Position numbers and translations under genes: made by a program. Under the pieces are notes generated by a model. The model made no database searches. It was not told the DNA's origin and worked only from the letters and a program-made list of their open reading frames with translations. Shown in pieces: positions 16,210 through 53,283 of a DNA stretch of 64,000 bases; position 1 is the first letter of the stretch, and each line of letters starts with the position of its first letter. Location of the stretch: the IMG/VR virus record IMGVR_UViG_3300020576_005257, positions 64,001 through 128,000 of that record, one strand, 5' to 3'. Source of the stretch: a virus. Taxonomy: Duplodnaviria; Caudoviricetes.

Positions 16210-16221
16210 GGAGAATAAATT

Positions 16222-38954: not shown

Positions 38955-39150
38955 TCACAATAATATTGATGGTTCCAGTCTGTTGGTTCAGAGGGTTATC
39001 ATCAATCTTAAAATCGTATCCTTTTCCTTTCTTCAAATTCTTAGTGCCAGTATTAAGAATTTTCAATTCCTTGGCTCTTTCAATTTGATCTTCAAGTTCA
39101 GTAATGTTGTGGATTTTTCCATCCTTTCCTTCAAATTCAATATGTTCCAT
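38938..39150 (-). CDS. hypothetical protein
   Basis: 70-aa ORF within the operon. Confidence 0.55.
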   Translation of the reverse strand: MEHIEFEGKDGKIHNITELEDQIERAKELKILNTGTKNLKKGKGYDFKIDDNPLNQQTGTINIIVNEETN

Positions 39151-39165
39151 ATTCGTTTTATAGTG

Positions 39166-39615
39166 TTATTGCCAAGAAGATATTTTTTTCGTCTGAGAAA
39201 AATCAGGTTTCAATTCTCCTTCAAATATACTGTAAATTGGTGGATTATTTTTAGTGACTGTAACTGTCAATCTTAGAGTACCTAACTTACTTTTAGAATC
39301 AATGCTTTGTAAGACAAACAAAGCTTCTTTTTCCATTTGAGTTTGAATGATTCCAACAAGATTAATAAACTCTTTATAATGTTCACCCATAAAAACTACT
39401 GAATATTTATCATTTAAAATATCTGAGTTATTAGTTACAGGATCAAAAACAGGAGTCACAAATACTGGACTTTTAATTCCACTGATAAGAGGATCATCAA
39501 AATTCAAAATAGATTGAAGCTTTCTTTTTGGACCCCATCCCCCATCTACTTCAAAATGACCTACCCAAGAGTAAGGTTTAATGTGTTTAGTAAAATATTT
39601 ATTCATTAGACGCAA
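39166..39615 (-). CDS. hypothetical protein
   Basis: 149-aa ORF. Confidence 0.6.
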   Translation of the reverse strand: MRLMNKYFTKHIKPYSWVGHFEVDGGWGPKRKLQSILNFDDPLISGIKSPVFVTPVFDPVTNNSDILNDKYSVVFMGEHYKEFINLVGIIQTQMEKEALFVLQSIDSKSKLGTLRLTVTVTKNNPPIYSIFEGELKPDFSQTKKISSWQ

Positions 39616-39827
39616 ATCACAATATCATCATTCAATTGAATTAATTTATGTGCTTTCTTAGTTCCTTTATGGAAGTTAAGATAATACCTATATTCAATGT
39701 AAGCAGAAGTTCTCATTTTCCACTCTTTTTCAGCAAGCTTATTTCTTTGAGTAATTTTCTTGGTTTGACCAAGATTAATTAAACCCAATGGGAATTTTAA
39801 GTATTGAGACGATTCTTCCATTTCCAA
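39606..39827 (-). CDS. hypothetical protein
   Basis: 73-aa overlap-coupled ORF. Confidence 0.5.
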   Translation of the reverse strand: MEMEESSQYLKFPLGLINLGQTKKITQRNKLAEKEWKMRTSAYIEYRYYLNFHKGTKKAHKLIQLNDDIVICV

Positions 39828-40423
39828 ATCTTCAATGCTGAGAGAAAAATATCAAAAATGACTTCCTGATCATTTTTAGATACTTCTTCCTCCTCCCATT
39901 GTCCTGTAATTTTATTAAGCTTTACAATAAACAATTTACAATTACTTAACTGGAAATTGGGGGGAAGTGAATCTTGTTCTGAGACTACTTTATCACAACC
40001 AGCATATGCACAAATTTGTAGATAATGGTCGTCTTGGATTTTTTTAGATGTTTTAAATTCTAAGATAGCATAAGTACCATCTTTAAGTTCAGCTATGGCA
40101 TCTAGGGCTCCGTGGTATTTGTGTTTAGTGGATATGATTTCTACATCTCTACAAATCCATCTTTTAACGTTTTTAGACACCCATTCATCAAAACTAGTAA
40201 TGATGGGCTGAATCTCCACAGGAGCAGCTGTAGCTATCCCACCAATAGATTCAGAGACACTGGTATGAACTGATTTACCGAAATCAGAAGATTGTTGTCT
40301 TTCTTTATCAGCAACTTCTTTACCAACCCTATTAACATATTTTTCAATATAAGGTTTTGCAATAACAGCAAGCACGGCTGATACAGAAGGGTACTGTTTA
40401 TAGTTTGTTTTTGTGTACATCAA
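39797..40423 (-). CDS. PD-(D/E)XK (Cas4/RecB-like) exonuclease
   Basis: YPSVSAVL, GKSVH, YHGALD, ILEFKTS, LQICAY. Confidence 0.85.
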   Translation of the reverse strand: MMYTKTNYKQYPSVSAVLAVIAKPYIEKYVNRVGKEVADKERQQSSDFGKSVHTSVSESIGGIATAAPVEIQPIITSFDEWVSKNVKRWICRDVEIISTKHKYHGALDAIAELKDGTYAILEFKTSKKIQDDHYLQICAYAGCDKVVSEQDSLPPNFQLSNCKLFIVKLNKITGQWEEEEVSKNDQEVIFDIFLSALKIWKWKNRLNT

Positions 40424-40435
40424 TGTATAGTGTAA

Positions 40436-42607
40436 CTATACAGGATTCCAGTTATTACAAACTTCAACAATCTTGTTTAAATCTTCTTTATTTAACCACC
40501 ATCCTACAGGAATGGATACTTGCTGTTTGGCAAATTGTTCAACTCCTGGAAGATCCTTTTCAATAAAGGGTTTGGTTATAGTATATCTATCATTCCTATA
40601 GTGGACAGGATTTGCTTCAATACCATTCTTTGCCATATAAGCAATGAATTCATCTACATTTTGCGTTAATACCGAAATGCTCATTAACCAATAAGAACAT
40701 TTATCATCAAATACTGGGAGAGATAGAAACGGATTTGTAATGTTGTTAATCAGATAATTAGCATGCTTTCTATGCTTCTTCACTGATAACTTGGCTTCTG
40801 ATAGATTAGCTAAACCGATGGCGGCACAAACATCGTTCATATGGTACTTGTAACCATTGTGTTTTAGATCTTGGGCACATCTAAATGACTGTCCAAGAGT
40901 TCTATCTAACCCATACCACCTAAGTAATCTAGCCAGCTTCTCTTTTTCAGGATCGTTTGTGATAAGACACCCGCCATCACTAGTGGTAAGAAACTTAATA
41001 GCCTGGAAGGAGTAACATATATAATCCCCTCTCTCCAGTTTTTGATGTTGGCTAAAGTAATCCCAACAGTGAGCTGCATCTTCGATTACAGGAATACCAA
41101 ACTTCTTTAAAGCTTTATAATCACAAGGTTTACCAGCCCAGTTTACAGCTATGATCGCTTTGGTTTTAGGAGTAATAAGTCTTTCAACTGATTTAGGATC
41201 AATTAACCAAGTGCCTTCCTGTACGTCAGCCCACCTAATCTTAGCACCTCTGTGCAGTATGTGACAATTAGACGCATAACAATTATGAAGAACCATATTC
41301 CAAGCAATGAAATTTTGATTATCTTCTACTTGAATGCAGTAGACGTATTTAGGTTTTACATAACTAGGTGGCTTTTCTTGTTTAAGTAAATATTCAGCAT
41401 AGTGTACTTCTCTGGGAGTTTTAATAATCCAATTTTCAGGATTATATTCAGTATACCCTTCCGGAACCTTATACCTAAAACAAGGAAGGATAAAGCTGGA
41501 TATCATAGATAAGAATTTATCTATATCGCTGTTTACTAACCCTAAACATATTCTGTTTCCTTTGTTATTAGGAGATTTAATTGATGTTGGTTTAAAACCT
41601 AAATCAACCATCTTATAAAACAACTTCCAAAAAGATTGAATATCAAAAGAATCTGTACAGAAAACAATTTTAGAGGGATTTCCGTTTTCGTCCCTTCCAA
41701 GTGAACCATCACCCATGTACCAAACTGCCAAAGTTTCTGGAGTTAAAACCAAATCATCTGGAACGATTTTTGATTTTGTTGGATACCAACGATGTTTCTG
41801 CTTCATCCAGAAAGGATGGACAGAGCTTTGATAAGCTAAGGCTTCTTGACTTTGGTTTCTTTGGGGCCTAGGATAAAGCAAGCCTCCTAATAAATTCTTA
41901 GCCAAACTTGCTAACTCAGCTTTATCATGTACAAAAGCTGTAGATAATCTAGATCCGTAACCTTTGTTAGTTTGAATACAACCATCACTAAGAATTAATC
42001 CATCTGCGAAGGACTTTTGAAGGGAGGTATATTCCTCATACTGAGTAGCTATTTTATCAGATTCAATGAGAGAATCTACTCTTTGCCAGGATCTGTCCTT
42101 CGTTAAAACTTGATGATCAGCAGTTAACCAAACACCTTGATGAAAAATATTAGAATCATCCTTTGAAAGCAGTTTCTTGATAGCTAATTTATACCACTGT
42201 TCTGTGGAAGGGTGTTTAATCCAATTAGTAATTTTCTTAGGTTCTAATTGTCCCGTAGAAGTATTTAAAGAAACAACTTCAACTGCTTCTTTGTTATCTA
42301 CTAGATCTCCCATACTTCTTGTGGTACCATCTGCCAATAGAACTGGAGTGTTACTACTAACACAGGTGACTGGAACTGTGATTACCTCTGAATCAGAATC
42401 TACACCGCATAGTTCTAGGGCCAGATCAATGGCACTTGTACAGGAATTCACAGTCACAGGTGTACCCTTTGTTCCTAAAGCTTCTTTGAGCTTCTGTTCA
42501 AACAAATCTACTTTAGGACCTTGACCAATAAAACCACTAGAAAGTACTTCATTTACTAACTTCTTGGCGGATCTGGCCATCTTGACTTTAAACAATCGTA
42601 TCATCAA
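40436..42607 (-). CDS. DegT/DnrJ/EryC1/StrS PLP-dependent sugar aminotransferase containing an intein
   Basis: GPKVDLFE, VNSCTSA, IEDAAH, SFQAIKFLTTSDGG (PLP Lys), GYKYHMND; 362 aa after splicing. Confidence 0.92.
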   Translation of the reverse strand: MMIRLFKVKMARSAKKLVNEVLSSGFIGQGPKVDLFEQKLKEALGTKGTPVTVNSCTSAIDLALELCGVDSDSEVITVPVTCVSSNTPVLLADGTTRSMGDLVDNKEAVEVVSLNTSTGQLEPKKITNWIKHPSTEQWYKLAIKKLLSKDDSNIFHQGVWLTADHQVLTKDRSWQRVDSLIESDKIATQYEEYTSLQKSFADGLILSDGCIQTNKGYGSRLSTAFVHDKAELASLAKNLLGGLLYPRPQRNQSQEALAYQSSVHPFWMKQKHRWYPTKSKIVPDDLVLTPETLAVWYMGDGSLGRDENGNPSKIVFCTDSFDIQSFWKLFYKMVDLGFKPTSIKSPNNKGNRICLGLVNSDIDKFLSMISSFILPCFRYKVPEGYTEYNPENWIIKTPREVHYAEYLLKQEKPPSYVKPKYVYCIQVEDNQNFIAWNMVLHNCYASNCHILHRGAKIRWADVQEGTWLIDPKSVERLITPKTKAIIAVNWAGKPCDYKALKKFGIPVIEDAAHCWDYFSQHQKLERGDYICYSFQAIKFLTTSDGGCLITNDPEKEKLARLLRWYGLDRTLGQSFRCAQDLKHNGYKYHMNDVCAAIGLANLSEAKLSVKKHRKHANYLINNITNPFLSLPVFDDKCSYWLMSISVLTQNVDEFIAYMAKNGIEANPVHYRNDRYTITKPFIEKDLPGVEQFAKQQVSIPVGWWLNKEDLNKIVEVCNNWNPV
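41282..42364 (-). mobile_element. 361-aa LAGLIDADG intein in the DegT aminotransferase
   Basis: Starts CVSSNTPVLLADG; block B TADH; GLILSDG and VWYMGDG; ends NMVLHN followed by Cys. Confidence 0.92.
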
Positions 42608-42926
42608 TTTCTACCTTAAAATCTTCTACTTTTGGAAAAACTAAATCCATACCAGACTCTTTCCAAAAGTCTTGAGAGCTGACAAGAGTATTTCTAAAAC
42701 AAATTTCAGCTGAGGATTTTACTAGTTCCATAATCTTATTAAAATCATCTTCATTTAATTTTTGAAGTTCTTTATTAAGATCCAATTCCTGTCTTCCCAC
42801 TACTCTCTTTCTAATAACTGTATCAGTTAATAGCTCTTTATAATCAAAGTAACTTATTACAGTTTCCACATAATGTTTATCTGTAAAGAAGTCTTTTGTA
42901 ATTTTTATCTTTAAGTCGAATTCCAT
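42588..42926 (-). CDS. hypothetical protein
   Basis: 112-aa ORF with AAGGA site. Confidence 0.6.
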   Translation of the reverse strand: MEFDLKIKITKDFFTDKHYVETVISYFDYKELLTDTVIRKRVVGRQELDLNKELQKLNEDDFNKIMELVKSSAEICFRNTLVSSQDFWKESGMDLVFPKVEDFKVEIDDTIV

Positions 42927-42997
42927 AATAGTCCTTGAACTTTATAATCTAAAACTAGTGTTTATATGTAAGCTAATTTTAGATTTTGACTAGGACT

Positions 42998-43711
42998 TTA
43001 GTCTTTATCTCTTACGTTATAAGTGTTTGATCGGCTTCCCATCTGATCTGAAAAAATGGCTTTGTATTGTCCCATAATATGGTTACACTTACATAACCCA
43101 AATACTCTACCCATTTGGTCATACCAGGTAGCATCCAGATTTCTAGTTTGAACTGGAAGATGTAGGCCAGCTTCTATGGGTTGTTTTATACTAAATGAGC
43201 CCTGAGATGCGTCAATTGTACAGCTACCATATAGGTCGTGAACGTGATTATGTGCAAAACCCCTTATTGGTACATCGGGTGGGGTTTCTACAAAAGGATC
43301 AAATGTAGAGACATGGCAATATGAATAAACTACGTCAGGATTATCTTTGTACCAATCATTTAGTTTCTCCAAGTAGTCTGGGAGGAGCATATCATCGTCA
43401 CATGCAAAAATAAAATAATCAGCATCACTTTTCTTTAATGCTTCTGTCATGTACAGACCATGATGACTGCCACCTTGTGCTTCTTTTTGTTGAGGAGTGT
43501 GTGGAATATAGTCAAAAGTTATTTTGTCAAGATGCTCAGATAACATTTCCTCAACAATAGGTCTAACCTGAAGACCCTCTCTACTTCCATCATCAATAAC
43601 GTGAAGATGCCAATTAGTATAAGTTTGATCTTTAATGCTTTGTAACATGTTTCTACACATGTTCGGTCTTTCAAAAAAAGCAAACAATATGAGAAATTTG
43701 AAATCCTTCAT
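42998..43711 (-). CDS. GT2-family glycosyltransferase
   Basis: LQSIKDQTYTNW, VIDDGS, ACDDD. Confidence 0.85.
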   Translation of the reverse strand: MKDFKFLILFAFFERPNMCRNMLQSIKDQTYTNWHLHVIDDGSREGLQVRPIVEEMLSEHLDKITFDYIPHTPQQKEAQGGSHHGLYMTEALKKSDADYFIFACDDDMLLPDYLEKLNDWYKDNPDVVYSYCHVSTFDPFVETPPDVPIRGFAHNHVHDLYGSCTIDASQGSFSIKQPIEAGLHLPVQTRNLDATWYDQMGRVFGLCKCNHIMGQYKAIFSDQMGSRSNTYNVRDKD

Positions 43712-44394
43712 TACAGCAAACCACCATCAAGCTTTAAAACAGTTCCGTTACAATACTCAGTATCAACTAGAAATTTAATAGTGTTAACTAATTCTTCTGC
43801 TTTTCCAAATCGCCTCAAAGGAATATTTTTCAAAGTAGCTTCTTTAATATTTTCAGGTAACTTATCACAAAGACCACCTTCAAAATAACCTAGTAAAATT
43901 GAATTCCAAGTAGAACCATGTTTAGCATTTTCTAATGCAGCAACTCTAATTAAGTTGTCAGTAAAGGCTTTAGACGCTGAATATAGTCCTGCGCCTTTTA
44001 CTGGTTTCTGGGAAAGCACTGAGCTAATTTGAATAAACCTACCTTTACATTCTCTTTCACCCCAATAAATACTAACTTCTTTGATTAAATTATAAGCACC
44101 AGTTACGTTAACAGCTATTGATTTTTCAATATTTGTTGGAGTAGAGTCTACAAGTAAACCATCATAACTAACAGTTGCTAAGTTAACTACAATATCAGGC
44201 TTAAAAACTCTTAAAGTAGCCCTAACCATTTGGATATCAGTAATATCACATTCTTTAGAAGAGAAGTCAATAACCGTATAATCCTTAGATAACAAAGGAG
44301 TAATAGCTTTTCCAAGACCTCCTTGACCACCAACCAGAACACAAATCGGTTTCTTAAGCTGAAAAGAATCGGAAATATTATTCAGCTTGTCCAT
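43711..44394 (-). CDS. short-chain dehydrogenase/reductase (FabG-like)
   Basis: GGQGGLG, ISS, YSASK, IPLRRFG, DGG. Confidence 0.9.
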   Translation of the reverse strand: MDKLNNISDSFQLKKPICVLVGGQGGLGKAITPLLSKDYTVIDFSSKECDITDIQMVRATLRVFKPDIVVNLATVSYDGLLVDSTPTNIEKSIAVNVTGAYNLIKEVSIYWGERECKGRFIQISSVLSQKPVKGAGLYSASKAFTDNLIRVAALENAKHGSTWNSILLGYFEGGLCDKLPENIKEATLKNIPLRRFGKAEELVNTIKFLVDTEYCNGTVLKLDGGLL

Positions 44395-44695
44395 AAACTT
44401 CTGCTTCGTTAATCAACTTAAAACCAATAGGTCTACTAGTTTGTGGAGTATCTCCTTCCGACCACTCCAAACATAGAAAATTACCATCTTGAGCACAAAG
44501 ACCATTTAACAAGCCAAGAAACCCTACAGTAGCAAAAGGTCTATCTGTCTCATAGCCAAGCATATCTACTTGAATATATGGGTGATCTTGAAGAGTCTTA
44601 TTACAAGGAACCCTATTGCAAACTAAACTGTGTACAGCATGAGGATCAGCTTCAAATGCCTCATTCATTAATTCTAACAGTTTTTCACTAATCAT
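44378..44695 (-). CDS. hypothetical phage protein
   Basis: RVPCN...HPYIQV...VGFLGLLNG. Confidence 0.65.
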   Translation of the reverse strand: MISEKLLELMNEAFEADPHAVHSLVCNRVPCNKTLQDHPYIQVDMLGYETDRPFATVGFLGLLNGLCAQDGNFLCLEWSEGDTPQTSRPIGFKLINEAEVYGQAE

Positions 44696-44837
44696 TATAA
44701 AATTCTCCTACGGCTGGGTCAAACTCTGTAGCCCATGTTGGTGGTTCTGGGTTCTGTGCGGCGTAGGCTTGTTCAGGCCAGAAGCCATCAACCTCTCGCA
44801 TCTCACCACCCCAATCTTTGTAATACTTAATCTCCAC
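44688..44837 (-). CDS. 49-aa acidic protein (not in ORF track)
   Basis: GTG start after AGGTGG; VEIKYYKDWGGEMREVDGFWPEQ...GEFYND fills the gap. Confidence 0.5.
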   Translation of the reverse strand: MEIKYYKDWGGEMREVDGFWPEQAYAAQNPEPPTWATEFDPAVGEFYND

Positions 44838-45183
44838 TTTTTACCACCTGACAAAAGAAAGGGGGAACATAGAATCTTCCAGGAATAGCAAAGTTGATTT
44901 CGTTGTTATTCATCATTTCAATAAGAGTTGACTGTTGTTCATCATTGAAATGTTGGAAGTAGACTTTCCTATCATTAAGATAGCACTTGTAATTTTTATC
45001 AGTAGGTGTAACTTTATCACCTTCTTTTGCTCTCTTTAGAAATTCATCTGGATGTAGAGAACCACAAAAAGTACATTTGTTTTCCTTGTCCCACATATCA
45101 AGATTCTCAGTTCTTTCCCAAGGACCAAGTTCGTTTATTCTTCTAGGACAAGTCTGAAACTTTAGAGTATCAATATTAGTCAT
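44827..45183 (-). CDS. hypothetical Cys-containing phage protein
   Basis: CPRR...CTFCGSLHP...TDKNYK. Confidence 0.65.
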   Translation of the reverse strand: MTNIDTLKFQTCPRRINELGPWERTENLDMWDKENKCTFCGSLHPDEFLKRAKEGDKVTPTDKNYKCYLNDRKVYFQHFNDEQQSTLIEMMNNNEINFAIPGRFYVPPFFCQVVKSGD

Positions 45184-46196
45184 TAATTTTCCTCTTTAGG
45201 ATAGAAAGTATTGCTTCTTGTAAGCTTCTCACTATTAACGGCTTTGATCAAAGGATATGTTTCTGGTAACTGATAGTCTCGAATATTCTTGGAAGAGATG
45301 TCTTTCAACACATAATGACCTTCTTTGTAATCAGAATAGAACGGAGTGTAGTGTTTTATATCATCCTCAAGGAACGTTACGTGGGTGGCCTGGCTCCAAC
45401 GAGTGGAACCCTCTTCTGTAATCGCTGAACCACCATGCAGCAGATTAGCTGCCCAAATTAATGCTTCGCCCTTCTTAGCAAAAAAGTACTTATCTTCATA
45501 TCTTTTAGCTTTAATAAGCTGTCTTACAAAGTTTTCATATTCAGTATAATTATCCTTTTCACCTTTATATTCGGTGTGAGACATTTTAAGGTCTTGGAAT
45601 TCATAGATTGGTTCTTTATGAGAGCCAGGATAATACATTAAAGGTCCTTGATTGGGGCCAATATCCTCTAAGGCTGTCCAGAAACCACATACCCACCTAT
45701 GGGGCATAGAAGCAAAGTGACAATGGTCTGAGTGGGTAGGTTGTGCAGAACCAAGTTTGAAGTTGATAGTCTGGAAGGGAATTGCTCTTCGACCGTATAG
45801 AAACTCAATCACCTCCATTGCGATCTCATTTCTAGCTAACTCAAGAACATTCTTATTCCATTTCCAAGCTTCAAAGATTCGAGGACCATCATTATAATGG
45901 AAATGTCCTTCTTGAGTTTTAACTGCACCTTCCATGAGCTTTGTATCAAGCTCAGTAATAAGATCTTCTACAAATTTATCCTCTAAGTCAAGATTAATCT
46001 TAACAAAACCGTGTTTATAAAAGTGACGTGCTAACTCTTCAAACCACTCGGTCTTCCTTTGACCAACTTCTCCTTTAACTTGAGTCTTCCTAAATTCTTC
46101 TAGTTTGCCAGGAAGCAAACTATAAAAAAAAGGACTCTCGCAGAAAGGTATATTAGTAGCCTCAGGATCATTAAAATAGTTTTTAAGATTGTTCAT
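45183..46196 (-). CDS. phytanoyl-CoA-dioxygenase-family 2OG-Fe(II) oxygenase
   Basis: HSD, WTALED, GPLMYYPGSH, LLHGGS, TRWSQ. Confidence 0.9.
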   Translation of the reverse strand: MNNLKNYFNDPEATNIPFCESPFFYSLLPGKLEEFRKTQVKGEVGQRKTEWFEELARHFYKHGFVKINLDLEDKFVEDLITELDTKLMEGAVKTQEGHFHYNDGPRIFEAWKWNKNVLELARNEIAMEVIEFLYGRRAIPFQTINFKLGSAQPTHSDHCHFASMPHRWVCGFWTALEDIGPNQGPLMYYPGSHKEPIYEFQDLKMSHTEYKGEKDNYTEYENFVRQLIKAKRYEDKYFFAKKGEALIWAANLLHGGSAITEEGSTRWSQATHVTFLEDDIKHYTPFYSDYKEGHYVLKDISSKNIRDYQLPETYPLIKAVNSEKLTRSNTFYPKEEN

Positions 46197-46797
46197 TTTG
46201 TTTGTGTTCTCTCTTTTTTTGATGGGCTTTTACCATATTAGCGATATGTTCTGGAGATTTAGGTTTTCTCATTTTCTCTTTAGTTTCTTCAGATCTTTTC
46301 ACACCCAAAGGAGACGGAGGTTTACATCCTCTTTTTAAAGATAGTTCTCTTAGTTTTTCTTTAATTTCTGGAGTATGGGATATGCCTAATCTATACTTAT
46401 TGCCTTTTAATTTTTCAGAAATACGAGCCTTGGTTTCGGAACTGTGTTTTGCACCCCTGAAAGCATTATCAGTAAATTCACTATAATTAAACATTTCAAC
46501 TTCTTTGTTAAAAATATCGTAATAAAATTGTTCAGCTATAAGTAGATCTTCCAAAGACACCCTATCTACTATTACAAATTCAAATTGGTTCTCTCCATAT
46601 TTATTCCAAGCATTTTGTAAGTGTATATTTTTATGTTTGTTGTTTTTTAATTGGGAAATATGTTTATCTTTTCGAGCGGATAAGTTTATAGTCGATCCCA
46701 CATAAATTGCTGTAGTTATTTTATTAGTTATTATATAAATGATCCCAGGAACCGACATTGCTTCTGGGTCGTTCAAATAATCTTTAAGTTCGTTCAT
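46183..46797 (-). mobile_element. GIY-YIG homing endonuclease with NUMOD3, fused to a copy of the dioxygenase N-terminus
   Basis: IYIITNKITTAIYVGS, LQNAWNKYG, HSSETKARISE; first 17 aa match those of 45183..46196. Confidence 0.9.
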
Positions 46798-47534
46798 TAA
46801 ATACCTACCTTGTAGATGTGTCGTTCTGATTCATCGAATCTGCTTAAATGGGATGCTTGTGAGGCGTGAGTTTTATAGTTAGAACAGAAAGGAGAACATC
46901 CTTCCAAGTTAACTAATCTTAAACCATGTACTCCATAAACTATAGTGAAAGCTAATTCTGCGTTTTCAAAACTAGTGTAATCGGTTCCGTTATTATGTGG
47001 AAGATGTCCAGCATTATTTACTGATACTGTATCTAAATTAGTTTTACTGGAAAAACCACACCCGCCACCTGAATGCCATCCATTAGGTGTATTAACTATG
47101 GGGGCTAATGATACAAAGCCTATAGTAGGGTCTGATTCAAGAGTATTAACTGCATCTAGATAAATATTATCTTCTGTAATTATAACATCATCCTCTAAAA
47201 AACACCAATAATCATATTCATCTTTGTGCTGTTGGTAAGCATAGTCGTAAGCAGCAAAGGATCCTCCTGTATTAGGCCTTGTGTGGCACTTATAGGTGCC
47301 TCTGAATGATGGGGTGCCATCTAATGAGTCTAGGTAAACATTAGCCCCATGATAGCCAGCCTGATTGTTTACCAGAATCACATCACAATCAATTCCTGGA
47401 TCAATTTTCTTATCCCACTCTATGTGATGCTGAAAAAGCTCCAAGGAAGCTTCTGGAGTAGTGGGGTTATTGTTGAGAGTTCTCCTTGCCCCAAAATATA
47501 CAGCAATGACTTTACAGCATTTTTTCGTGTTCAT
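46797..47534 (-). CDS. putative GT-A-fold glycosyltransferase (start moved to ATG 47534)
   Basis: VILVNN, RPNTGGSFAAY, FLEDD. Confidence 0.6.
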   Translation of the reverse strand: MNTKKCCKVIAVYFGARRTLNNNPTTPEASLELFQHHIEWDKKIDPGIDCDVILVNNQAGYHGANVYLDSLDGTPSFRGTYKCHTRPNTGGSFAAYDYAYQQHKDEYDYWCFLEDDVIITEDNIYLDAVNTLESDPTIGFVSLAPIVNTPNGWHSGGGCGFSSKTNLDTVSVNNAGHLPHNNGTDYTSFENAELAFTIVYGVHGLRLVNLEGCSPFCSNYKTHASQASHLSRFDESERHIYKVGI

Positions 47535-48222
47535 AGCTAAGTTCAAATATGTTGTGAATAAAAATCGGTGTGGCTGAAAAATCACACACTCTTTTTAGTT
47601 TAAGTTCTGGGTGGAGTTTTATATAGTCGTCTAGTTGTTTTTGGGTGATCGTCACATATCCGTAGAAATCTTCATTTATATGTGGTTCAGGATAGCTTAA
47701 AGAGTATTCTTCGCTAATAAAACAAGAGAAAACTATTTTAGCTTTAGGTGATATTTTAAAGCACTCAATAAGCTTATCTAATGTTTTATATATATTTTCA
47801 ATTGTCAAATGAGTAAAAACACTAATAAGAGTAATACAGTCTAAAGGTTGTTTTAGAACATCTTCTAAATGGGATTCTATGTGTCCAAGTGTCACTCTAG
47901 GGTCGTTTAATAATCTTTGACCAATAGTTATTCTCTCAATACCATGAGCACTTAGAGGTTCTAAGCCATAATAAGTAAAATCGTTAAGACGAGCACTAAT
48001 AAAATTGGCTAATACCCCAGCACCACAACCATAATCTAAGATCTTGAAACCATTTTCAAAACTATTTACAGGCTCAAGGAAAGAGCACATACCAATAGAT
48101 GCATGGGGCTCATTAGAAATACCACCATATAATGAAACTATCTCTGGATGATTGTGATTGATAATTGGGTTATTTTGAGTTGTTACCCATTTGGTTTCCC
48201 ATATTTCATTACTGTTATACAT
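47512..48222 (-). CDS. class I SAM-dependent methyltransferase
   Basis: ILDYGCGAG, SVFTHL. Confidence 0.88.
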   Translation of the reverse strand: MYNSNEIWETKWVTTQNNPIINHNHPEIVSLYGGISNEPHASIGMCSFLEPVNSFENGFKILDYGCGAGVLANFISARLNDFTYYGLEPLSAHGIERITIGQRLLNDPRVTLGHIESHLEDVLKQPLDCITLISVFTHLTIENIYKTLDKLIECFKISPKAKIVFSCFISEEYSLSYPEPHINEDFYGYVTITQKQLDDYIKLHPELKLKRVCDFSATPIFIHNIFELSYEHEKML

Positions 48223-48784
48223 GTTTCAACCACTTCTCATCTTTTGATAATCTTTGAATTGCTTCTTGATTTCGATCCTTTAAGAAAGTCAATGGGTGTC
48301 CTACGTACACACTGTATGGATTAAGTAGATCTTTCTTCCAGACAACTGACTTCAAACCTATAGTTGTACCTTCTGGTAGGGTGACTCCTGGCATTACAAT
48401 TACATCCGAAGCTACACCCGAATATGAGTTTAGTTCTATATCTCCGTGGTAAACCTTATTATTTCCCCAATATTCGTTTACAGGCCCCTGTTCACCTGAG
48501 TAGTCTTCACTCCCACAAAAGAACTTAGAACCATATCCGATAAAGCACCAGTCCCCTAAAGTGATTGTGTGTTTACCTCCTCCTGATAAAACTACGTGGC
48601 TACATATCTGAATATTGTTGCCAGTTTTAAGCCCCGTAGTTATGAGGGAAAACGGATCTATACGAACCCTGTCACCTAGAAATACCTGAGAAGGATTGGT
48701 GAAGATGACGTTGTGGCCGATATATACATTTTCACCACAGCCACCTAATTTCTTTTTCCAGCTATCATCCCATCCTATGCTCAT
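48215..48784 (-). CDS. hexapeptide-repeat (LbH) sugar acyltransferase
   Basis: CGENVYIG, LGDRVRID, VMPGVTL, VYVGHP. Confidence 0.88.
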   Translation of the reverse strand: MSIGWDDSWKKKLGGCGENVYIGHNVIFTNPSQVFLGDRVRIDPFSLITTGLKTGNNIQICSHVVLSGGGKHTITLGDWCFIGYGSKFFCGSEDYSGEQGPVNEYWGNNKVYHGDIELNSYSGVASDVIVMPGVTLPEGTTIGLKSVVWKKDLLNPYSVYVGHPLTFLKDRNQEAIQRLSKDEKWLKHV

Positions 48785-49628
48785 ATACTTTCTCCATATA
48801 CTCTGTAATTGCTTTGTCTAAACTGGGAAGATTACCTATTTTATTATCTAGCTTGGTAGTATCTAATACGCTATTTAAAGGTCTTTTAGCAGGGGTATTA
48901 TATTTATGGGTAGGGACTGGTTCAATTTCTACTTGTTTGGTGGTATAGAAAGTAAACAATCTTTCGGCAAACTCATACCAAGACAAAGCCTCTGGACCAG
49001 CACAATGATAAATCCCGTTATATTCATCTGGATCCTGTAATATTTTACATACTTGAGCGGCTAAATGTGGGGCGTAGGTTGGGCATGTTAATTGATTATC
49101 AACCACTCTCAAATGTTTTTGATCATTATAGGCATTTATAATGGTTTCTGGAAAGCAGCAAGACTTATGATCAAACAAAGCACTGGTTCTAATAATCAAA
49201 TTATTACCACCTGAGGTAAGAACTGCTTTCTCTCCTTTATATTTAGTTAGACCATAAAAATTAAGTGGATTGACAATATCATTTTCTATATATCCTCTTT
49301 TTAATTTGCCATCAAAAACATAATCTGTACTAAATGTAATTAATTTAGATCCTATTTTTTTACAAAATAAAGATAGCAAATATGGTCCTAGAGTATTAGT
49401 TTTAATCGCTAACTCTCTCTCAGTTTCAGCTAAATCCACTTTTGTATAAGCAGCACAATTGATAAGGATGTCAAAACTCAAATCGTCAAGATACTGTACA
49501 TCTTCCACATTAGAAATATCTAATTGTTTTCTTGTAAAAGCTAAGACCTTGAAATCTTTAGATAGAGCTTTAACTAAAGCTCTTCCAAGCATTCCATTTG
49601 CACCTAGAATAACTATTCTGTCGGACAT
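48765..49628 (-). CDS. rmlD: dTDP-4-dehydrorhamnose reductase
   Basis: GANGMLG, NCAAYTKVD, STDYVFDG, YGLTK, PTY, AKRP. Confidence 0.92.
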   Translation of the reverse strand: MSDRIVILGANGMLGRALVKALSKDFKVLAFTRKQLDISNVEDVQYLDDLSFDILINCAAYTKVDLAETERELAIKTNTLGPYLLSLFCKKIGSKLITFSTDYVFDGKLKRGYIENDIVNPLNFYGLTKYKGEKAVLTSGGNNLIIRTSALFDHKSCCFPETIINAYNDQKHLRVVDNQLTCPTYAPHLAAQVCKILQDPDEYNGIYHCAGPEALSWYEFAERLFTFYTTKQVEIEPVPTHKYNTPAKRPLNSVLDTTKLDNKIGNLPSLDKAITEYMEKVYEHRMG

Positions 49629-50461
49629 TTTGTTTCAGAAAATAATGGTCTAAAAAGTTTCTTCAGATGATCAACATCTATATTGTTAACTGCCATATTA
49701 AGCTCTAATCCTAGTTGATTAGGATGTTGAGGAGAAACGGCTACCAACCACTTAGGTATGGCACAAGAAATAACCATAAAGTTACAACCCACAGCAGAGG
49801 CAAAGAACCTAATTCCCGTATCCACGCTTATACAGCCATTAGCATACTTCAACAATGCAGCTATATGTTCTAGCGGATAGCCATAAAGCTTAGTCCAAGG
49901 CCAATCTTGAAATCTACCTTCTTCTAGATCTTGTTCCGACCCTATAGCGATAGGCTCAATACCCATAGCTTTTAATTGTTCACCCATTTGAAGCCAATAA
50001 ACGTTACTAAAACACTTATTAGGTTTATTGATTTTGGGATCATGTGAAGTACAAGAAGCACTGTGCCTAGCACACAATACAAACGGCTTATTAATTAGAG
50101 TTTTAAAGATCTCTAAAGCAGCAACATCGTCCTCAGGAGTAGGTTGATAGATAATAGAATTGTTAAGAACATTTAAACCTATTTGAGCACCATATCCCTC
50201 AGTCATAGGGATATGTAAGTTCTGTCCTATTTCCATAGCTTTACAACAATCCATAACCATATCTCCTTCTTGGGCTGAATCGTTGAATACGATTTCATCT
50301 ATATATGGGTTACGAGTATGAATGATTCGACTAATACTCTTCTCTGGAACTCTGTAAGTAATTTTACAGTTTGGATCGTAGGCTTTAATAGATCTAATAG
50401 TTGGAGATTGCATGATAGCGTCCCCAATTAGATTCCTACAAAAAAAAGTAATTTGATTCAT
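49613..50461 (-). CDS. GT9 (heptosyltransferase-like) glycosyltransferase
   Basis: IGDAIMQSPTIRSIK, NPYIDEI, ISVDTGIRFFASA. Confidence 0.8.
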   Translation of the reverse strand: MNQITFFCRNLIGDAIMQSPTIRSIKAYDPNCKITYRVPEKSISRIIHTRNPYIDEIVFNDSAQEGDMVMDCCKAMEIGQNLHIPMTEGYGAQIGLNVLNNSIIYQPTPEDDVAALEIFKTLINKPFVLCARHSASCTSHDPKINKPNKCFSNVYWLQMGEQLKAMGIEPIAIGSEQDLEEGRFQDWPWTKLYGYPLEHIAALLKYANGCISVDTGIRFFASAVGCNFMVISCAIPKWLVAVSPQHPNQLGLELNMAVNNIDVDHLKKLFRPLFSETKCPTE

Positions 50462-51210
50462 AATGTGTTGTAAGGCTCCCAGAGCAACTCAAGATTAAAA
50501 TTAGCCAACCAGTCTAGCCGATGTCCCCAGCTTTGCCCAGCCCGATGTTCTACTCCAGGAAAGTTAACGTAAGCTGTTTTATACCCATACATTCTAATTA
50601 GATTAGAGAAATATCTATCACTACCAATATGGGCAAGTCCTTTTAATCCCGCAAACTCTGGGTAGTTGGTAGTTGGTCCACCTAAATCAGTCTCACAAAA
50701 AACTCCTACCTTTTTAAATACCTCAAACTTCACGCACATAAAGTGGCCAGTTACAAAATGAGGACTCTCAACAATAGTATAAGTTTCCTTTGGATGGTGT
50801 TGAGGACTATCTGTATATCCAGTCAACCCCATATCAGTATTCACGGTAAATGGGATAAGGAGATTTTCAAATCCATTTTCCTTTAACATACAATCGCTAT
50901 TAACGATGAAACAATACTCAAAAGGAATTCTACGATGCTCGTTAGCTGCTCTAATCCCCGTGTTCACAGCTCTAGTAAAGAGCTGCTGTTTACCTAGAGT
51001 AATTAATTGGTAGTTTTTAGTGGGGTGTGTTTCTAATATTTGTCTGAGAGCCCTATGAGTCTCAGGAGTAGAACAATCATCTACCACAATTAAATACATT
51101 TCTGGATGGTTGGTGATAATCCAATCCAAAGTTGCTGTAGCGTATTCTGCCGCATTGTGAACAGGAACTATCGCTACTGAGTTTTTTAACATTGTTTCAA
51201 TATTATTCAT
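50458..51210 (-). CDS. GT2-family glycosyltransferase
   Basis: IVPVHNA, VVDDCS, FTRAVNTG, VNSD, FKKVGVF. Confidence 0.85.
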   Translation of the reverse strand: MNNIETMLKNSVAIVPVHNAAEYATATLDWIITNHPEMYLIVVDDCSTPETHRALRQILETHPTKNYQLITLGKQQLFTRAVNTGIRAANEHRRIPFEYCFIVNSDCMLKENGFENLLIPFTVNTDMGLTGYTDSPQHHPKETYTIVESPHFVTGHFMCVKFEVFKKVGVFCETDLGGPTTNYPEFAGLKGLAHIGSDRYFSNLIRMYGYKTAYVNFPGVEHRAGQSWGHRLDWLANFNLELLWEPYNTL

Positions 51211-51878
51211 TTTGTAAACTTTAGTGTTGGCGTAAAGAGATAACCTTCTTCCACATGCAGACCAAATCTTTCTTTAATTATGGAAGTTATTTCAGTTGCT
51301 GCTATATTAAATTCTTCCCACATCTTTTTAGATTTACCCATTTCAACTTTTTTATATTTTGGTTCACATCTTTTTCTAACATGAAATTCAAGATTAGAAT
51401 GAAAACGCAAACTAAAATTATTAGTTATATTTCCAGGAGTTTCCCAATAAGCTCCATGTAAACCAATAGCCAAATTAGAAAACGGAAGGTCTTTGTAGAA
51501 TCCTATTAAATTAGAAACCCCCATAGCTTTCGACCACAATGAAAAACCTGTAGTGTAATTAGTGATTACTACAGGAGAAATTTTTTGATAGGCCTTAATC
51601 ATCTTTCTGACTTCCTGGAGATTAGCGGCATATACGTGACACCACCAATAAGGCTCTACTTCCAGTTGTTTGGGATTGTTTATTACAGTATGTAAAATGG
51701 CTTGACCAGTAAAACTCTGTAAATCTAAATAAGGACAATGAATAACCTTAGCAGAAATTCTTTTAGCTACTAATTCAGCTATTAGCTTTTTACCACAATC
51801 TGGTACACCAGTAATTTCAATTATAGGATGCAGTAAAGGAGGCGGAGGGGGTAATCCATGCAGTTTAGCCTTTTTCAT
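51207..51878 (-). CDS. divergent thymidylate-kinase-like P-loop protein
   Basis: IIEITGVPDCGKK, P...SFTGQAI, YAAN. Confidence 0.55.
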   Translation of the reverse strand: MKKAKLHGLPPPPPLLHPIIEITGVPDCGKKLIAELVAKRISAKVIHCPYLDLQSFTGQAILHTVINNPKQLEVEPYWWCHVYAANLQEVRKMIKAYQKISPVVITNYTTGFSLWSKAMGVSNLIGFYKDLPFSNLAIGLHGAYWETPGNITNNFSLRFHSNLEFHVRKRCEPKYKKVEMGKSKKMWEEFNIAATEITSIIKERFGLHVEEGYLFTPTLKFTK

Positions 51879-52140
51879 TCTCGTCTTCTGCTGGCTGGCC
51901 CATTACAATCATATAACGATTGATGACTTGTTTTAAAGGAAGAAAGGTGATCATATAGCGATCACCTTTTAATACTAAAAAGGTCAAGGCCTTTCTTCCT
52001 CTAGTAAGATTAATAAGGTTACGAGGTTTTTCTTCTTTGATAGAATGAGCTATGCGTTGTACCGCTTTTACTTTGTAATCAAGTATAGCTACAATTTCAT
52101 CAGCGGCAACCATGTTGCCAAAACCTATGTGAAGTAACAT
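51865..52140 (-). CDS. remA: RemA/DUF370-family regulator
   Basis: LLHIGFGNMVAADEIVAIL ... LINLTRGRK, 91 aa. Confidence 0.85.
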   Translation of the reverse strand: MLLHIGFGNMVAADEIVAILDYKVKAVQRIAHSIKEEKPRNLINLTRGRKALTFLVLKGDRYMITFLPLKQVINRYMIVMGQPAEDENEKG

Positions 52141-52563
52141 TTACAACAAACCTTGAATTTGATTATACTGACTCTGATCAATGGAAGCAAACACATCTTC
52201 TTCCGTATGGGTAATTTTGGAATAGTTGGCTAGAACTTCCTTAGACTCTTCCATTTTTTGGTAGTCTTCAATAGTAGCACCACCACAAGTTCCAGGCTCA
52301 GCATCTGGGTGTGCAAAAGGAGCATTAACTGCTGTTTGAATTACTTTTAATGCAACTTGTACATCTGGTTCGAATTCACCTTCTGGAAGACATCCACCCA
52401 AATTATTTGCAGGTCTAACTCTGGTTTCACATAAAGCACAAAGACGACAGTGCTTATCGTAGTTTTGGCACTTATTAGTTACCAAACACTGAGAATATCG
52501 TGGACACTTGAATTTCAAGTGGGTTGGATAAAGGAAACCTCTGGAAATACTTGGAGCTTGCAT
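52141..52563 (-). CDS. Cys-rich hypothetical protein
   Basis: CPRYSQC, CQN, CRLCALCE. Confidence 0.65.
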   Translation of the reverse strand: MQAPSISRGFLYPTHLKFKCPRYSQCLVTNKCQNYDKHCRLCALCETRVRPANNLGGCLPEGEFEPDVQVALKVIQTAVNAPFAHPDAEPGTCGGATIEDYQKMEESKEVLANYSKITHTEEDVFASIDQSQYNQIQGLL

Positions 52564-52564
52564 A

Positions 52565-53002
52565 TTACAATTCGGTGATTATTCCGTCTACATTATCAAC
52601 TCTGGCCATTTTTTCAATCTTCTGATCAAGTTCTAGGACTTGTTTATAAAGAGATCTAATATTACCATTCAACCATTCGTAATCTACTGGCTGAACATTT
52701 AATTCATCATCTTCTGTGGCGTCAAGGTTGACTCTCCAGTTTTCAAGGAATTGATAAACCCCACCTAAAAATTCTCTTTGCATAGTGAGACCAATTAAAG
52801 ACTCACCACTATCTTCCTTTTTAAGCATATTGGCAATAAAGTCTTCACCAGAGGTGGCTGTTTCTATGGCTAGCTGAGCAGCCTCTGCCATCTTAGCATC
52901 CCTGTTCTTTGGAGTCCAACCAGAAAGGTCAGTCAAGGAATCAATCCTTGGCTTAAATACACTCATAGTGGAATCCATCAATATTTGATCTAATGTTCTC
53001 AT
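52565..53002 (-). CDS. hypothetical protein
   Basis: 145-aa ORF. Confidence 0.65.
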   Translation of the reverse strand: MRTLDQILMDSTMSVFKPRIDSLTDLSGWTPKNRDAKMAEAAQLAIETATSGEDFIANMLKKEDSGESLIGLTMQREFLGGVYQFLENWRVNLDATEDDELNVQPVDYEWLNGNIRSLYKQVLELDQKIEKMARVDNVDGIITEL

Positions 53003-53283
53003 GTGGGTCTTTTTGTAATCTCCGTAAGTTTAGTGGCTAAAATGTTTTCTGTGCTGGAATAAGCAATGAGGGTTTTTCGATTCCTCAAAAACCAAAGCAG
53101 ACTTGGAATAAATTTCTTTGGGTATTTGATTTCTTTAATTAAAGTATGGGCATCTAGAACTTCATTAAGTTGCTCTAATAAAAATAAACTTTCATCTGTT
53201 TTCTTATCTTTGATAAGAGTATAGGAATATTGAATAGCTTCTTTTAGTACAGCACATAAATTAGCATGACGATAAAACATCAC
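52999..53283 (-). CDS. hypothetical protein
   Basis: Overlap-coupled ORF. Confidence 0.55.
   Translation of the reverse strand: MMFYRHANLCAVLKEAIQYSYTLIKDKKTDESLFLLEQLNEVLDAHTLIKEIKYPKKFIPSLLWFLRNRKTLIAYSSTENILATKLTEITKRPT

Follow-up and report, generated by a model that had tools for sequence, protein, structure and literature searches.

A phage-encoded glycosylation gene island in an uncultured river phage, predicted to make an acylated amino sugar

Organisation of the island in the phage genome

The window analysed here, a stretch of 64,000 nucleotides, belongs to the 235-kb, 95%-complete genome of an uncultured river phage, and holds a block of genes read from position 51878 down to position 40436. 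A preliminary description of this DNA had named these genes, and all of them were found in their places, with 15 of 15 ORFs on the minus strand, as are all features located by window coordinates below. From the RemA-like gene at the head through a downstream PD-(D/E)XK-like gene, 13 of the 16 junctions are overlaps of 1–23 nt, the other three being gaps of 131, 71 and 12 nt. The 131-nt gap, the only long one, contains the best sigma-70-like site of the region and precedes a small ORF of 105 aa (44378..44695). Two further small ORFs, one Cys-rich (118 aa, 44827..45183, no Pfam or PHROG match) and one acidic (112 aa, 42588..42926), are missing from the closest relative, L005, which otherwise retains the operon order at 43–72% identity. 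Upstream of the island lie virion-structural-like genes and a GroES gene, and downstream an endolysin gene, all on the same strand.

The preliminary description had allowed that the block might prove to be mis-assembled host DNA. Bacterial relatives do exist for the enzymes, and the record is a metagenome assembly without terminal repeats; however, host DNA that was mis-assembled or lately captured and has no phage role is an extremely improbable explanation. The GC content is even over the whole window (0.34–0.37), a single 38.6-kb contig spans positions 37500–53000 with zero differences, the gene junctions are also covered by contigs of a second study, two relatives (L005 and the more distant L166) hold the island in the same slot, and phage records gave no nucleotide match. 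The block was accordingly taken as genuine phage DNA.

At its head, a gene for a small RemA-like DNA-binding protein (51865..52140; Pfam RemA-like, E 1.9e-14) overlaps with its 3′ end, by 14 nt, the gene of a TMK-fold P-loop protein (51207..51878). The latter had been described as a TMK-like kinase, and its fold was borne out by an AlphaFold model (pLDDT 94) with Foldseek TM scores of 0.6–0.7 against the yeast, vaccinia and human thymidylate kinases, and by a family profile that matched vaccinia TMK at E 6e-5. The GxxDxGK motif is retained, whereas the DRY motif of TMK reads TNY across the family. The two genes adjoin each other in both L005 and L166, the latter keeping the TMK-fold gene even though its slot holds other glycosyltransferases; judged by this distribution, they are a conserved backbone pair and have no exclusive tie to the sugar cassette.

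Sugar-tailoring enzymes, the dioxygenase and their homing elements

Family and profile matches backed each of the sugar-enzyme assignments made earlier. The RmlD gene, encoding a dTDP-4-dehydrorhamnose reductase (48765..49628), scored 281.7 bits against TIGR01214 (cut-off 224) and E 1e-81 against Pfam RmlD_sub_bind; being missing from L005, it is by gene content an accessory branch. It is followed by a left-handed beta-helix (hexapeptide) N-acyltransferase of AntD/VioB type (48215..48784), whose best solved relative is AntD of B. cereus (3VBI–3VBP; E 4e-14, full length, about 30% identity; PMC6031040). About 79 viral loci, and metagenome clusters numbering at least 300, hold copies of this protein with 60–70% identity, one of which JGI has named dTDP-4-amino-4,6-dideoxy-D-glucose acyltransferase, and the enzyme is predicted to act on the amine of a 4-amino sugar. 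The SAM-dependent methyltransferase (47512..48222; Pfam Methyltransf_23/12/25), a counterpart of VioM and of Mimivirus R132, has copies of 40–54% identity that adjoin the acyltransferase gene in 12 viral loci. Further downstream lie a FabG-like SDR, the counterpart of VioR (43711..44394; Pfam adh_short_C2, E 1.6e-24), with 3-oxoacyl-ACP and acetoacetyl-CoA reductases as its best NCBIfam and PDB matches and, in related viral loci, a FabH gene at its side, and a DegT-family PLP-dependent sugar aminotransferase of C4 type (40436..42607; Pfam DegT, E 2e-65), with AtmS13 (E 1e-51), CalS13 (E 1e-38) and also ArnB as its best solved relatives.

The starting enzymes are encoded outside the window, with RmlA-like and RmlB-like genes at genome positions 200354–202509, 90 kb off; another relative, L009, has an RmlB-like gene immediately upstream of its cassette. 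Searches of this genome turned up no RmlC, KAS III, acyl carrier protein or enoyl-CoA hydratase; either host enzymes must therefore provide for the acyl donor and the rhamnose branch, or these deviate from the models.

The remaining enzyme of the core is an Fe(II)/2-oxoglutarate dioxygenase of PhyH type (45183..46196; Pfam PhyH, E 9e-17) with a conserved His-x-Asp...His triad. Its family profile found human phytanoyl-CoA 2-hydroxylase as best solved match (E 3e-11), in agreement with the earlier view that it is PhyH-like rather than TET/JBP-like. The cassette-linked proteins formed a clade of their own in the PhyH tree, joined by SAR11 and SAR86 copies, and tblastn against cultured phage records gave no match. 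About 80 uncultured viral contigs share the core, made up of aminotransferase, acyltransferase, PhyH and reductase, which was found in no cultured phage; in 46 of the related viral loci, a KAS III gene stands between PhyH and reductase.

Two of the genes carry homing elements. A GIY-YIG/NUMOD3 endonuclease, previously identified correctly but set in brackets as if a mere neighbour, is more than that, because its mobile cassette (46162..46762, ORF 46183–46797; Pfam and PHROG matches) lies within the 5′ end of the PhyH gene, where it is inserted after approximately codon 12 and brings a recoded substitute 5′ end. The cassette is missing from L005, and a contig of run X6, from another river sample, joins 46161 to 46763 without it, leaving the joined frame open. 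The DegT aminotransferase is interrupted by a LAGLIDADG intein (residues 82–442, 41282–42364; Pfam LAGLIDADG_2 and Intein_splicing), of which the L005 copy is free. The earlier remark on homing elements was right, with a strain lacking the endonuclease cassette occurring in another river sample.

Kinase and dioxygenase had also been read as hints of DNA hypermodification, in which the dioxygenase would hydroxylate a base, the TMK-like kinase would handle the nucleotide and the glycosyltransferases would decorate the DNA against restriction. Diverse DNA-linked glycans are known from phages, whose transferase sets differ between relatives (bioRxiv 10.1101/2023.12.21.572611; PMC13326640), and the island has both a nucleotide-kinase fold at its head and a content that varies between relatives. 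These hints nevertheless failed on closer inspection, and we regard this target as very unlikely. The kinase-fold gene belongs to the backbone and has TNY in place of DRY, while the dioxygenase, with an acyl-CoA hydroxylase as nearest solved relative, is always linked to sugar and acyl enzymes, being tied in the approximately 80 loci to acyltransferase and aminotransferase and not to DNA enzymes. The genome holds ordinary ThyX, dCMP deaminase and a gp1-like dNMP kinase, and neither a ThyA-type hydroxymethylase or hydroxylase nor a TET/JBP domain was found in it, which argues against DNA modification.

Soluble glycosyltransferases and the destination of the glycan

Four glycosyltransferases are encoded in the island, and Pfam, ESM Atlas and AlphaFold/Foldseek evidence supported the earlier calls for them. 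The first GT2 enzyme (50458..51210; Pfam Glycos_transf_2, E 1.7e-12) has no hydrophobic segment and a homologue in L005 that is 54% identical. A GT9-like enzyme of GT-B type (49613..50461) gave a weak match to NCBIfam TIGR02193, and resembled GT9 clusters of the ESM Atlas, several of them viral, both in features (0.97) and in structure (TM 0.81). The third is a divergent GT-A enzyme (46797..47534) with an EDD motif invariant in the family alignment; homologue alignment placed the true start of its gene at 47534, not 47585, its AlphaFold model (pLDDT 93.6) had SpsA, EXTL2, WrtF and RmlT as best Foldseek matches, and in L005 the GT-A domain is fused to the acyltransferase. A second soluble GT2 enzyme (42998..43711; Pfam Glycos_transf_2, E 7.7e-11) is found in about 25 viral loci, immediately after the reductase. 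A fifth glycosyltransferase gene, of GT-B type, adjoins Baseplate_J. In L166 the same slot holds a different set of glycosyltransferases, which is what diversifying pressure on a surface glycan would be expected to produce.

Transmembrane segments are absent from all operon proteins, and these soluble transferases could serve remodelling of the host envelope, with the unusual dTDP-sugar being fed into a lipid-linked O-antigen, teichoic-acid, capsule or S-layer pathway of the host, whose flippase and ligase would export the product, so that the changed surface blocks superinfection or the sticking of progeny to debris. Many bacterial O-antigen glycosyltransferases are likewise soluble or peripheral, LPS cores are typical GT9 substrates, the island begins with a RemA-like gene, a relative of a regulator that controls operons for matrix polysaccharides, many lytic coliphages and phages of Klebsiella carry an RmlD gene, and soluble transferases may use undecaprenyl-linked intermediates of the host, in which case the phage would need no export genes of its own. 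We still consider this unlikely. No candidate initiating phosphoglycosyltransferase, flippase, polymerase, ligase or oligosaccharyltransferase was found either in this genome or in the 20-kb neighbourhoods of 80 related viral loci, where the few polytopic proteins are a DUF401 transporter and holins. Since no protein in the 235 kb exceeds three predicted membrane segments, a self-sufficient remodelling or polysaccharide export, one of the targets offered earlier, is weakened. The closest solved system, moreover, glycosylates protein without a lipid carrier, and long-term seroconversion is improbable because the phage looks lytic and large.

The acceptor is probably a protein, and there is about an even chance that it is a virion protein. 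The island could instead act outside the virion: on a host protein, for example flagellin or pilin, on a phage protein without a structural role, or on a small molecule, for instance a glycolipid or a secondary metabolite. Flagellin is the target of the best-characterised homologous gene set, antibiotic sugar pathways, including those of AtmS13 and CalS13, can likewise combine DegT, acyltransferase, SDR and dioxygenase, and the sequence itself names no acceptor. Such a non-virion acceptor nevertheless has a low probability in our view, as the cassette is present in many unrelated-looking viral contigs with shifting glycosyltransferase sets, which a viral acceptor fits better than one host-specific protein does, and genes for polyketides, non-ribosomal peptides or an aglycone are absent from the surroundings. 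A Gly/Ser/Thr-rich protein of 314 aa and Ser/Thr-rich fibre-like proteins are encoded nearby, and S/T-rich fibres had earlier been named as candidate acceptors; such fibres are common among phages and weak evidence for this role. Neither the major capsid protein nor the tail-tube protein could be pinpointed in the genome.

Known systems and a proposed pathway

The viosamine island of P. syringae pv. tabaci comprises vioA (aminotransferase), vioM (methyltransferase), vioT (transferase), vioS (KAS III), vioB (acyltransferase), vioR (3-oxoacyl reductase) and acp, together with the rhamnosyltransferase genes fgt1 and fgt2, and its product, solved by genetics and mass spectrometry, is N-(3-hydroxybutanoyl)-2-O-methylviosamine, placed from the dTDP-sugar on protein-O-linked rhamnose chains of flagellin without a lipid carrier (PMC3927599). 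Compared by enzyme family, the phage shares the C4 aminotransferase, AntD/VioB-type acyltransferase, FabG-type ketoreductase, methyltransferase and transferases. The KAS III partner is also present in related viral loci, whereas this genome lacks both KAS III and a recognisable acyl carrier protein, and adds the PhyH dioxygenase, the GT9-like enzyme and the divergent GT-A enzyme. Anthrose, a 4-(hydroxyacyl)amido-4,6-dideoxy-2-O-methylglucose, caps rhamnose chains on protein. Its pathway in Bacillus anthracis and B. cereus (AntA–D plus Rml; exosporium BclA) includes the closest solved relative of the acyltransferase, AntD (PMC6031040), and shares C4 aminotransferase, GT2, O-methylation and a rhamnose branch with the phage, which in place of the enoyl-CoA hydratase AntA has the FabG-like reductase and PhyH.

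In the Mimivirus fibril cluster (R141, L136, L142, R132, L780 and glycosyltransferases), a 4,6-dehydratase similarly feeds rhamnose and viosamine branches, the amine receives an N-acyl group and the sugar an O-methyl group, a GT domain lies beside the acyltransferase or is fused to it, the fusion being seen in L005 too, and the glycans end on virion fibrils (PMC4691112, PMC10117803). Mimivirus differs in being a virus of eukaryotes, in using UDP-sugars and an acetyl group, and in lacking partners of PhyH or FabG type. None of the three systems, of Pseudomonas, Bacillus and Mimivirus, has an equivalent of PhyH. The fold search with the GT-A model gave giant-virus GT-A proteins at TM of about 0.55, with no L142 match among the best 50. 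The mycobacteriophages of Freeman et al. 2023 reportedly encode only transferases and use nucleotide sugars of the host, whereas the phage studied here also encodes a sugar-tailoring pathway. The soluble glycosyltransferases that those mycobacteriophages encode modify their own capsid and tail proteins, according to the summary in PMC12619734. DNA-glycosylating phages, with glucosyl-5hmC in T4, arabinosyl-5hoC in RB69 and DLP3, and TET-linked transferases, share the variable glycosyltransferase sets and phage-encoded nucleotide-sugar enzymes (PMC13326640, bioRxiv 10.1101/2023.12.21.572611), but need a ThyA-type or TET-type enzyme for the base hydroxyl, and this phage has neither.

The lean of the preliminary description towards glycan tailoring was upheld as regards the chemistry, which can be sharpened to an acylated amino sugar. 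With the enzyme families as guide, the product is very probably a 4-acylamido-4,6-dideoxyhexose of viosamine/anthrose type, plus a 6-deoxyhexose branch. The RmlA-like and RmlB-like enzymes would make dTDP-4-keto-6-deoxyglucose, from which RmlD would yield a 6-deoxyhexose, namely rhamnose provided that a 3,5-epimerase is supplied, while the intein-bearing DegT enzyme would aminate C4 to give dTDP-viosamine. The AntD/VioB-like acyltransferase may then attach a short acyl group, of 3-oxo or 3-hydroxy type, to the amine, and the methyltransferase may O-methylate the sugar. Putative roles of the FabG-like SDR and PhyH, which we judge about as probable as their opposite, are reduction of the 3-oxoacyl chain and hydroxylation of the chain, respectively. 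The four soluble transferases would assemble a short glycan directly on its soluble acceptor; by analogy with the Pseudomonas flagellin system, this would most likely be Ser/Thr in a protein, here perhaps a virion protein. Taken as a whole, an island that works in the cytoplasm and puts its glycan on protein, presumably virion proteins, is the best explanation, and one to which we give roughly half of our confidence. It would mean that this phage brings its own genes for a rare acylated, methylated amino sugar together with four transferases.

Layout and phage origin of the sugar-gene block

The IMG/VR record (234,927 bp, GC 36%, terminal repeats absent), of which the window covers bases 64001–128000, has a CheckV completeness of 95%. 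Its sugar-gene block is a minus-strand series of 15 head-to-tail ORFs that begins at window position 51878 and ends at 40436. Counted from a RemA-like gene through a downstream PD-(D/E)XK-like gene, 13 of 16 junctions are overlaps of 1–23 nt, the remaining three being gaps of 131, 71 and 12 nt, and no hydrophobic segments were found in any operon product. Scans for sigma-70 promoters (58 versus 59 expected) and for terminators (11 versus 9 expected) gave results at chance. The preliminary description had allowed for mis-assembled host DNA, a possibility that could be set aside on several grounds. GC is flat over the whole window, one 38.6-kb contig from a public sequencing run spans 37500–53000 with zero differences, the gene junctions of the island are also covered by contigs from a second riverine study, and the closest related viral locus (L005) has the same gene order at protein identities of 43–72%. 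The sugar-gene block is thus phage DNA. By Megablast, the block matched nothing among cultured phage records. Differences were seen in two public runs: a low-depth contig of run X6, either chimeric or from a strain that lacks about 7.5 kb of the island, joins window 43806 to 51340 with 19 other letters between, and in window 44792–45617, in small ORF 10 and the 3' portion of the dioxygenase gene, the strain in run X3 differs at 63 of 826 positions, a rate several times that of the flanking contigs.

The gene list of the preliminary description was confirmed by family searches, and three products open in Pfam were settled by other means. The block encodes, all on the minus strand, a GT2 glycosyltransferase (50458–51210), RmlD (48765–49628; TIGR01214 equivalog, 281.7 bits versus an NCBI cut-off of 224), a hexapeptide acyltransferase (48215–48784), a SAM methyltransferase (47512–48222), a GIY-YIG/NUMOD3 endonuclease (46183–46797), a PhyH dioxygenase (45183–46196), a FabG-like reductase of the SDR type (43711–44394), a second GT2 (42998–43711) and a DegT aminotransferase with a LAGLIDADG intein (40436–42607). 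The third gene is GT9-like, with a weak NCBIfam match and ESM Atlas matches at 0.97 (features) and TM 0.81 (structure), and the seventh, with its true start at 47534, is a divergent GT-A having an invariant EDD motif (pLDDT 93.6) and SpsA, EXTL2, WrtF and RmlT as best matches. Four glycosyltransferases and one SAM methyltransferase are encoded in the island. The small ORFs at 44827–45183, 44378–44695 and 42588–42926 gave no usable family match and are absent from L005.

An exchangeable slot and its mobile elements

The first gene has a thymidylate kinase (TMK) fold (pLDDT 94, TM 0.6–0.7), and its family profile matched vaccinia TMK at E 6e-5. Its family's P-loop reads GxxDxGK, ending in GKK, where thymidylate kinases have GxxxxGK[ST], and in 32 family members TNY stands without exception where the TMK motif DRY (DR[YH]) aligns. 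The same gene is present in a more distant relative, the 194-kb contig L166, which retains the upstream backbone, including the 747-aa virion-structural-like protein, the 314-aa, 359-aa, 226-aa, 116-aa and 155-aa genes and a tandem GroES (in our phage a 200-aa protein with two Cpn10 units, window 53280–53882, minus strand), followed by two small genes and then the RemA-like and TMK-fold genes. Downstream, two small genes and the amidase are also kept. Between these, after the TMK-fold gene, L166 has Anp1/GT2-like, GT17 and GT1-like transferases together with an HNH endonuclease, and no sugar-tailoring genes were found in this slot. Because it is retained in a relative whose slot content differs, the TMK-fold gene belongs to the backbone and not to the cassette, and the island is an exchangeable slot inside a fixed backbone. 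A role as dedicated dTMP kinase for dTDP-sugar supply was considered and not adopted, since the gene is kept in a relative without dTDP-sugar island genes and since DRY is missing.

Two of the island genes carry mobile elements, which the preliminary description had taken as a sign of their conservation, and both elements could be substantiated. DegT residues 82–442 (window 41282–42364) are a complete intein with Cys1, a TxxH block, His-Asn followed by Cys+1, and two LAGLIDADG motifs; the aminotransferase copy of L005 is intein-less. For an intein, a PLP-dependent sugar aminotransferase is an uncommon host. As for the dioxygenase gene, in a contig from the second riverine study (run X6) 46161 is followed directly by 46763, with 601 nt left out, and a strain free of this cassette exists in that run. 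The joined PhyH frame, starting MNELKDYLNDPEATNIPF, is open, which places the endonuclease cassette after about codon 12 of the gene. The GIY-YIG ORF (within window 46162–46797) begins with the original first 12 codons of the dioxygenase, whereas the dioxygenase gene now begins with a recoded copy brought by the cassette, identical at 35 of the first 60 nt. The intein and the endonuclease cassette show that, for selfish elements, the aminotransferase and dioxygenase genes are reliable targets conserved throughout the phage population. Elsewhere in the genome, a 793-aa ORF near the RmlA/RmlB-like genes (genome 191473–193854, in locus L004) gave a weak intein-splicing signal, and the middle part of a 1120-aa ribonucleotide-reductase-like ORF (window 28562–31924, plus strand), which matches helicase-/terminase-like PHROGs, may be an inserted element.

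A probable viosamine/anthrose-type pathway with a PhyH dioxygenase

The aminotransferase has a DegT domain (E 2e-65) and the PLP lysine motif, and its best solved relatives are AtmS13 (E 1e-51) and CalS13 (E 1e-38), both of them dTDP-4-keto-6-deoxyglucose C4 aminotransferases, and then ArnB, with the C3 enzyme QdtB scoring far lower than the C4 enzymes. Among solved relatives, the acyltransferase comes closest to AntD of Bacillus cereus (E 4e-14 over the full length, with about 30% identity), which N-acylates dTDP-4-amino-4,6-dideoxyglucose during anthrose synthesis (PMC6031040); judged by this similarity, the phage enzyme is predicted to be of the VioB/AntD type and to act on the 4-amino group. 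Acyltransferase and aminotransferase occur together in about 77 of 80 viral loci. A literature search on 3-hydroxybutanoyl acyltransferases found nothing. The reductase, having the YxxxK motif, best matched FabG, i.e. 3-oxoacyl-ACP reductases, and acetoacetyl-CoA reductases. Starter genes lie 90 kb from the island in the same genome, encoding an RmlA-like nucleotidyltransferase (PF00483, 188 bits, genome 200354–201424, outside the window) and an RmlB-like 4,6-dehydratase (PF16363, 220 bits, genome 201421–202509). A type I dockerin domain occurs in a 215-aa protein encoded close to them (genome 203166–203813, also in L004).

Compared with the dTDP-L-rhamnose pathway (RmlABCD), the phage thus has RmlA-like, RmlB-like and RmlD enzymes but no RmlC; nothing in the genome, 95% complete, matched the 3,5-epimerase family PF00908, nor did the small ORFs give any cupin match. 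It differs from the anthrose operon (antABCD) in having no AntA, the enoyl-CoA hydratase family PF00378 being without match in the genome. For Pseudomonas syringae, mutants and mass spectrometry have shown that the viosamine island vioA, vioB, vioR, vioS, vioM and vioT produces dTDP-N-(3-hydroxybutanoyl)-2-O-methylviosamine and that the sugar goes onto flagellin's rhamnose chains (PMC3927599). The phage shares with that island the C4 aminotransferase, the VioB/AntD-type acyltransferase and the 3-oxoacyl reductase; it lacks the ketoacyl synthase KAS III (VioS) and the carrier protein, and adds PhyH. KAS III (PF08541) is absent from the genome and no acyl carrier protein was matched among the operon ORFs, and the acyl donor would therefore have to come from the host. 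The assignment to a viosamine/anthrose-type pathway is fairly secure, and the chemistry is that of the known pathways of this type.

The preliminary description had called the dioxygenase PhyH-like rather than TET/JBP-like, and this proved correct: the PhyH family was confirmed, while the TET/JBP domain PF12851 found no match. A 20-sequence PhyH profile best matched human phytanoyl-CoA 2-hydroxylase (E 3e-11), followed by ectoine hydroxylase, and in a profile search homologues were found in 80 viral contigs. All ORFs within 10 kb of PhyH in these 80 viral loci were clustered, whereupon an acyltransferase was found as neighbour in 79, DegT in 77, SDR in 63 and a Polysacc_synt_2 dehydratase in 57. 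KAS III, although absent from our phage, was present in 46 of the 80, mostly between PhyH and SDR. Further neighbours were GT1, GT2, GT4, GT10 and GT11 enzymes and methyltransferases. The acyltransferase is 60–70% identical over viral loci and over 300 or more metagenome clusters, and in one such cluster it carries the JGI name dTDP-4-amino-4,6-dideoxy-D-glucose acyltransferase. A tblastn search of cultured phage records with PhyH gave no match; the acyltransferase gave only weak ones, the best in two uncultured huge phages.

Among the 80 best bacterial PhyH loci, five were set apart by KAS III, DegT or SDR neighbours. These (L085, L090, L093, L103 and L146) are SAR11 and SAR86 single-cell or MAG contigs, with KAS III, SDR, DegT or Polysacc_synt_2 neighbours shown for all but L093; either the cassette came from such bacteria, or these contigs are phage DNA inside those cells. 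In a maximum-likelihood tree, a branch supported at 96% SH-aLRT separates these five and all 67 distinct viral PhyH sequences from the remaining 74 bacterial sequences; the cassette-linked dioxygenase is thus a subfamily of its own. Since its partners are an acyltransferase, a ketoreductase and KAS III, the range of substrates is narrowed, and the enzyme would be a clean test case for the PhyH family, with a short acyl chain or its carrier sugar as candidate substrates. A deamination pair of the KanJ/KanK kind, formed by PhyH and the reductase, was also considered, and was ranked below acyl-chain tailoring, in view of the neighbouring KAS III gene and of how weakly KanJ scored (E 0.06). A literature search on PhyH together with phage glycan genes gave nothing relevant.

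The acceptor of the glycan

Three acceptors were weighed: DNA, the host surface and protein. DNA hypermodification had been suggested in the preliminary description from the kinase and the dioxygenase, and neither hint held up, with the TMK-fold gene being part of the backbone and having TNY in place of DRY, and with the dioxygenase having phytanoyl-CoA 2-hydroxylase as nearest solved relative and an acyltransferase and DegT as partners. The phage also differs from known cases of DNA glycosyl hypermodification in having neither a ThyA homologue (PF00303, no match in the genome) nor a TET/JBP enzyme. Its thymidylate synthase is ThyX, encoded in a row with a T4 gp1-like dNMP kinase and a dCMP deaminase (window 7634–10670, plus strand), and this set is an ordinary thymidylate supply. 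An IMPDH/GMP-reductase-like gene was also seen, at window 3770–4888.

Host-surface remodelling, likewise proposed earlier, is weakened, as far as export by the phage's own machinery is concerned, by a hydropathy scan of the 235 kb. No ORF had more than three predicted membrane segments, so that candidates for an initiating transferase, a flippase, a polymerase, a ligase and an oligosaccharyltransferase are all missing. The phage thereby differs from Wzx/Wzy- or ABC-dependent polysaccharide clusters, which have polytopic membrane proteins, and no polytopic export machinery was found around the related viral cassettes either.

The closest solved system is cytoplasmic and attaches its glycan to a protein directly. 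Upstream of the island, on the same strand, are virion-structural-like genes with GroES, and downstream is an endolysin gene; several Ser/Thr-rich fibre-like proteins (window 13888–21127) are encoded nearby. A fifth glycosyltransferase, a 431-aa GT-B type with a SEC-C zinc tail (genome 143943–145238, minus strand; L167:1291–2586), is encoded directly beside a Baseplate_J gene (genome 142619–143395) and has almost exclusively viral Atlas relatives. Because of the solved protein system, the structural and endolysin neighbours, the fifth transferase by Baseplate_J and the Ser/Thr-rich proteins, we favour a virion protein as acceptor, although this is context and not proof. Between the 747-aa virion-structural-like gene and the island, window 56645–57589 (minus strand) encodes a candidate acceptor of 314 aa that contains two long linkers rich in Gly/Ser/Thr/Pro; only its C-terminal part is kept in L166, there in two copies.

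A viral parallel is the fibril cluster of Mimivirus, where a dehydratase feeds rhamnose and viosamine branches with N-acylation and O-methylation (PMC4691112, PMC10117803) and where the acyltransferase is fused to a transferase in the L142 architecture (PMC10117803). Our phage likewise encodes a dehydratase, an aminotransferase, an adjacent N-acyltransferase, a methyltransferase and several glycosyltransferases, and an acyltransferase–glycosyltransferase fusion is common to the Mimivirus cluster and L005. A fold search with the GT-A model against viral structures did not have L142 among the top 50. What distinguishes the phage cassette from the known systems is its bacteriophage setting, a PhyH partner with a virus-centred clade, its breadth in uncultured viruses and a fixed slot with changing content. 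No paper describing the cassette in phages was found in a literature search.

A tentative and, in our estimate, rather unlikely reading is a virus-centred pathway in which the distinct PhyH clade, invariably coupled to AntD/VioB-type acyltransferase, C4 aminotransferase and FabG/FabH-type enzymes, makes an undescribed hydroxylated N-acyl amino-deoxy sugar. This sugar would sit outermost in a glycan layer covering the particles of many uncultured aquatic phages, and exchangeable sets of transferases would give rise to phage 'serotypes'. To our knowledge, particle glycans are documented in only a few cultured phages, in cases with transferases alone. Here, a large environmental phage and about eighty viral contigs with the same core encode the tailoring of a rare bacterial-type sugar, which in known systems caps glycans attached to proteins. 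Should the virion be the target, aquatic phages would commonly wear sugar coats that vary between them, with consequences for adsorption, stability, grazing and immune recognition.
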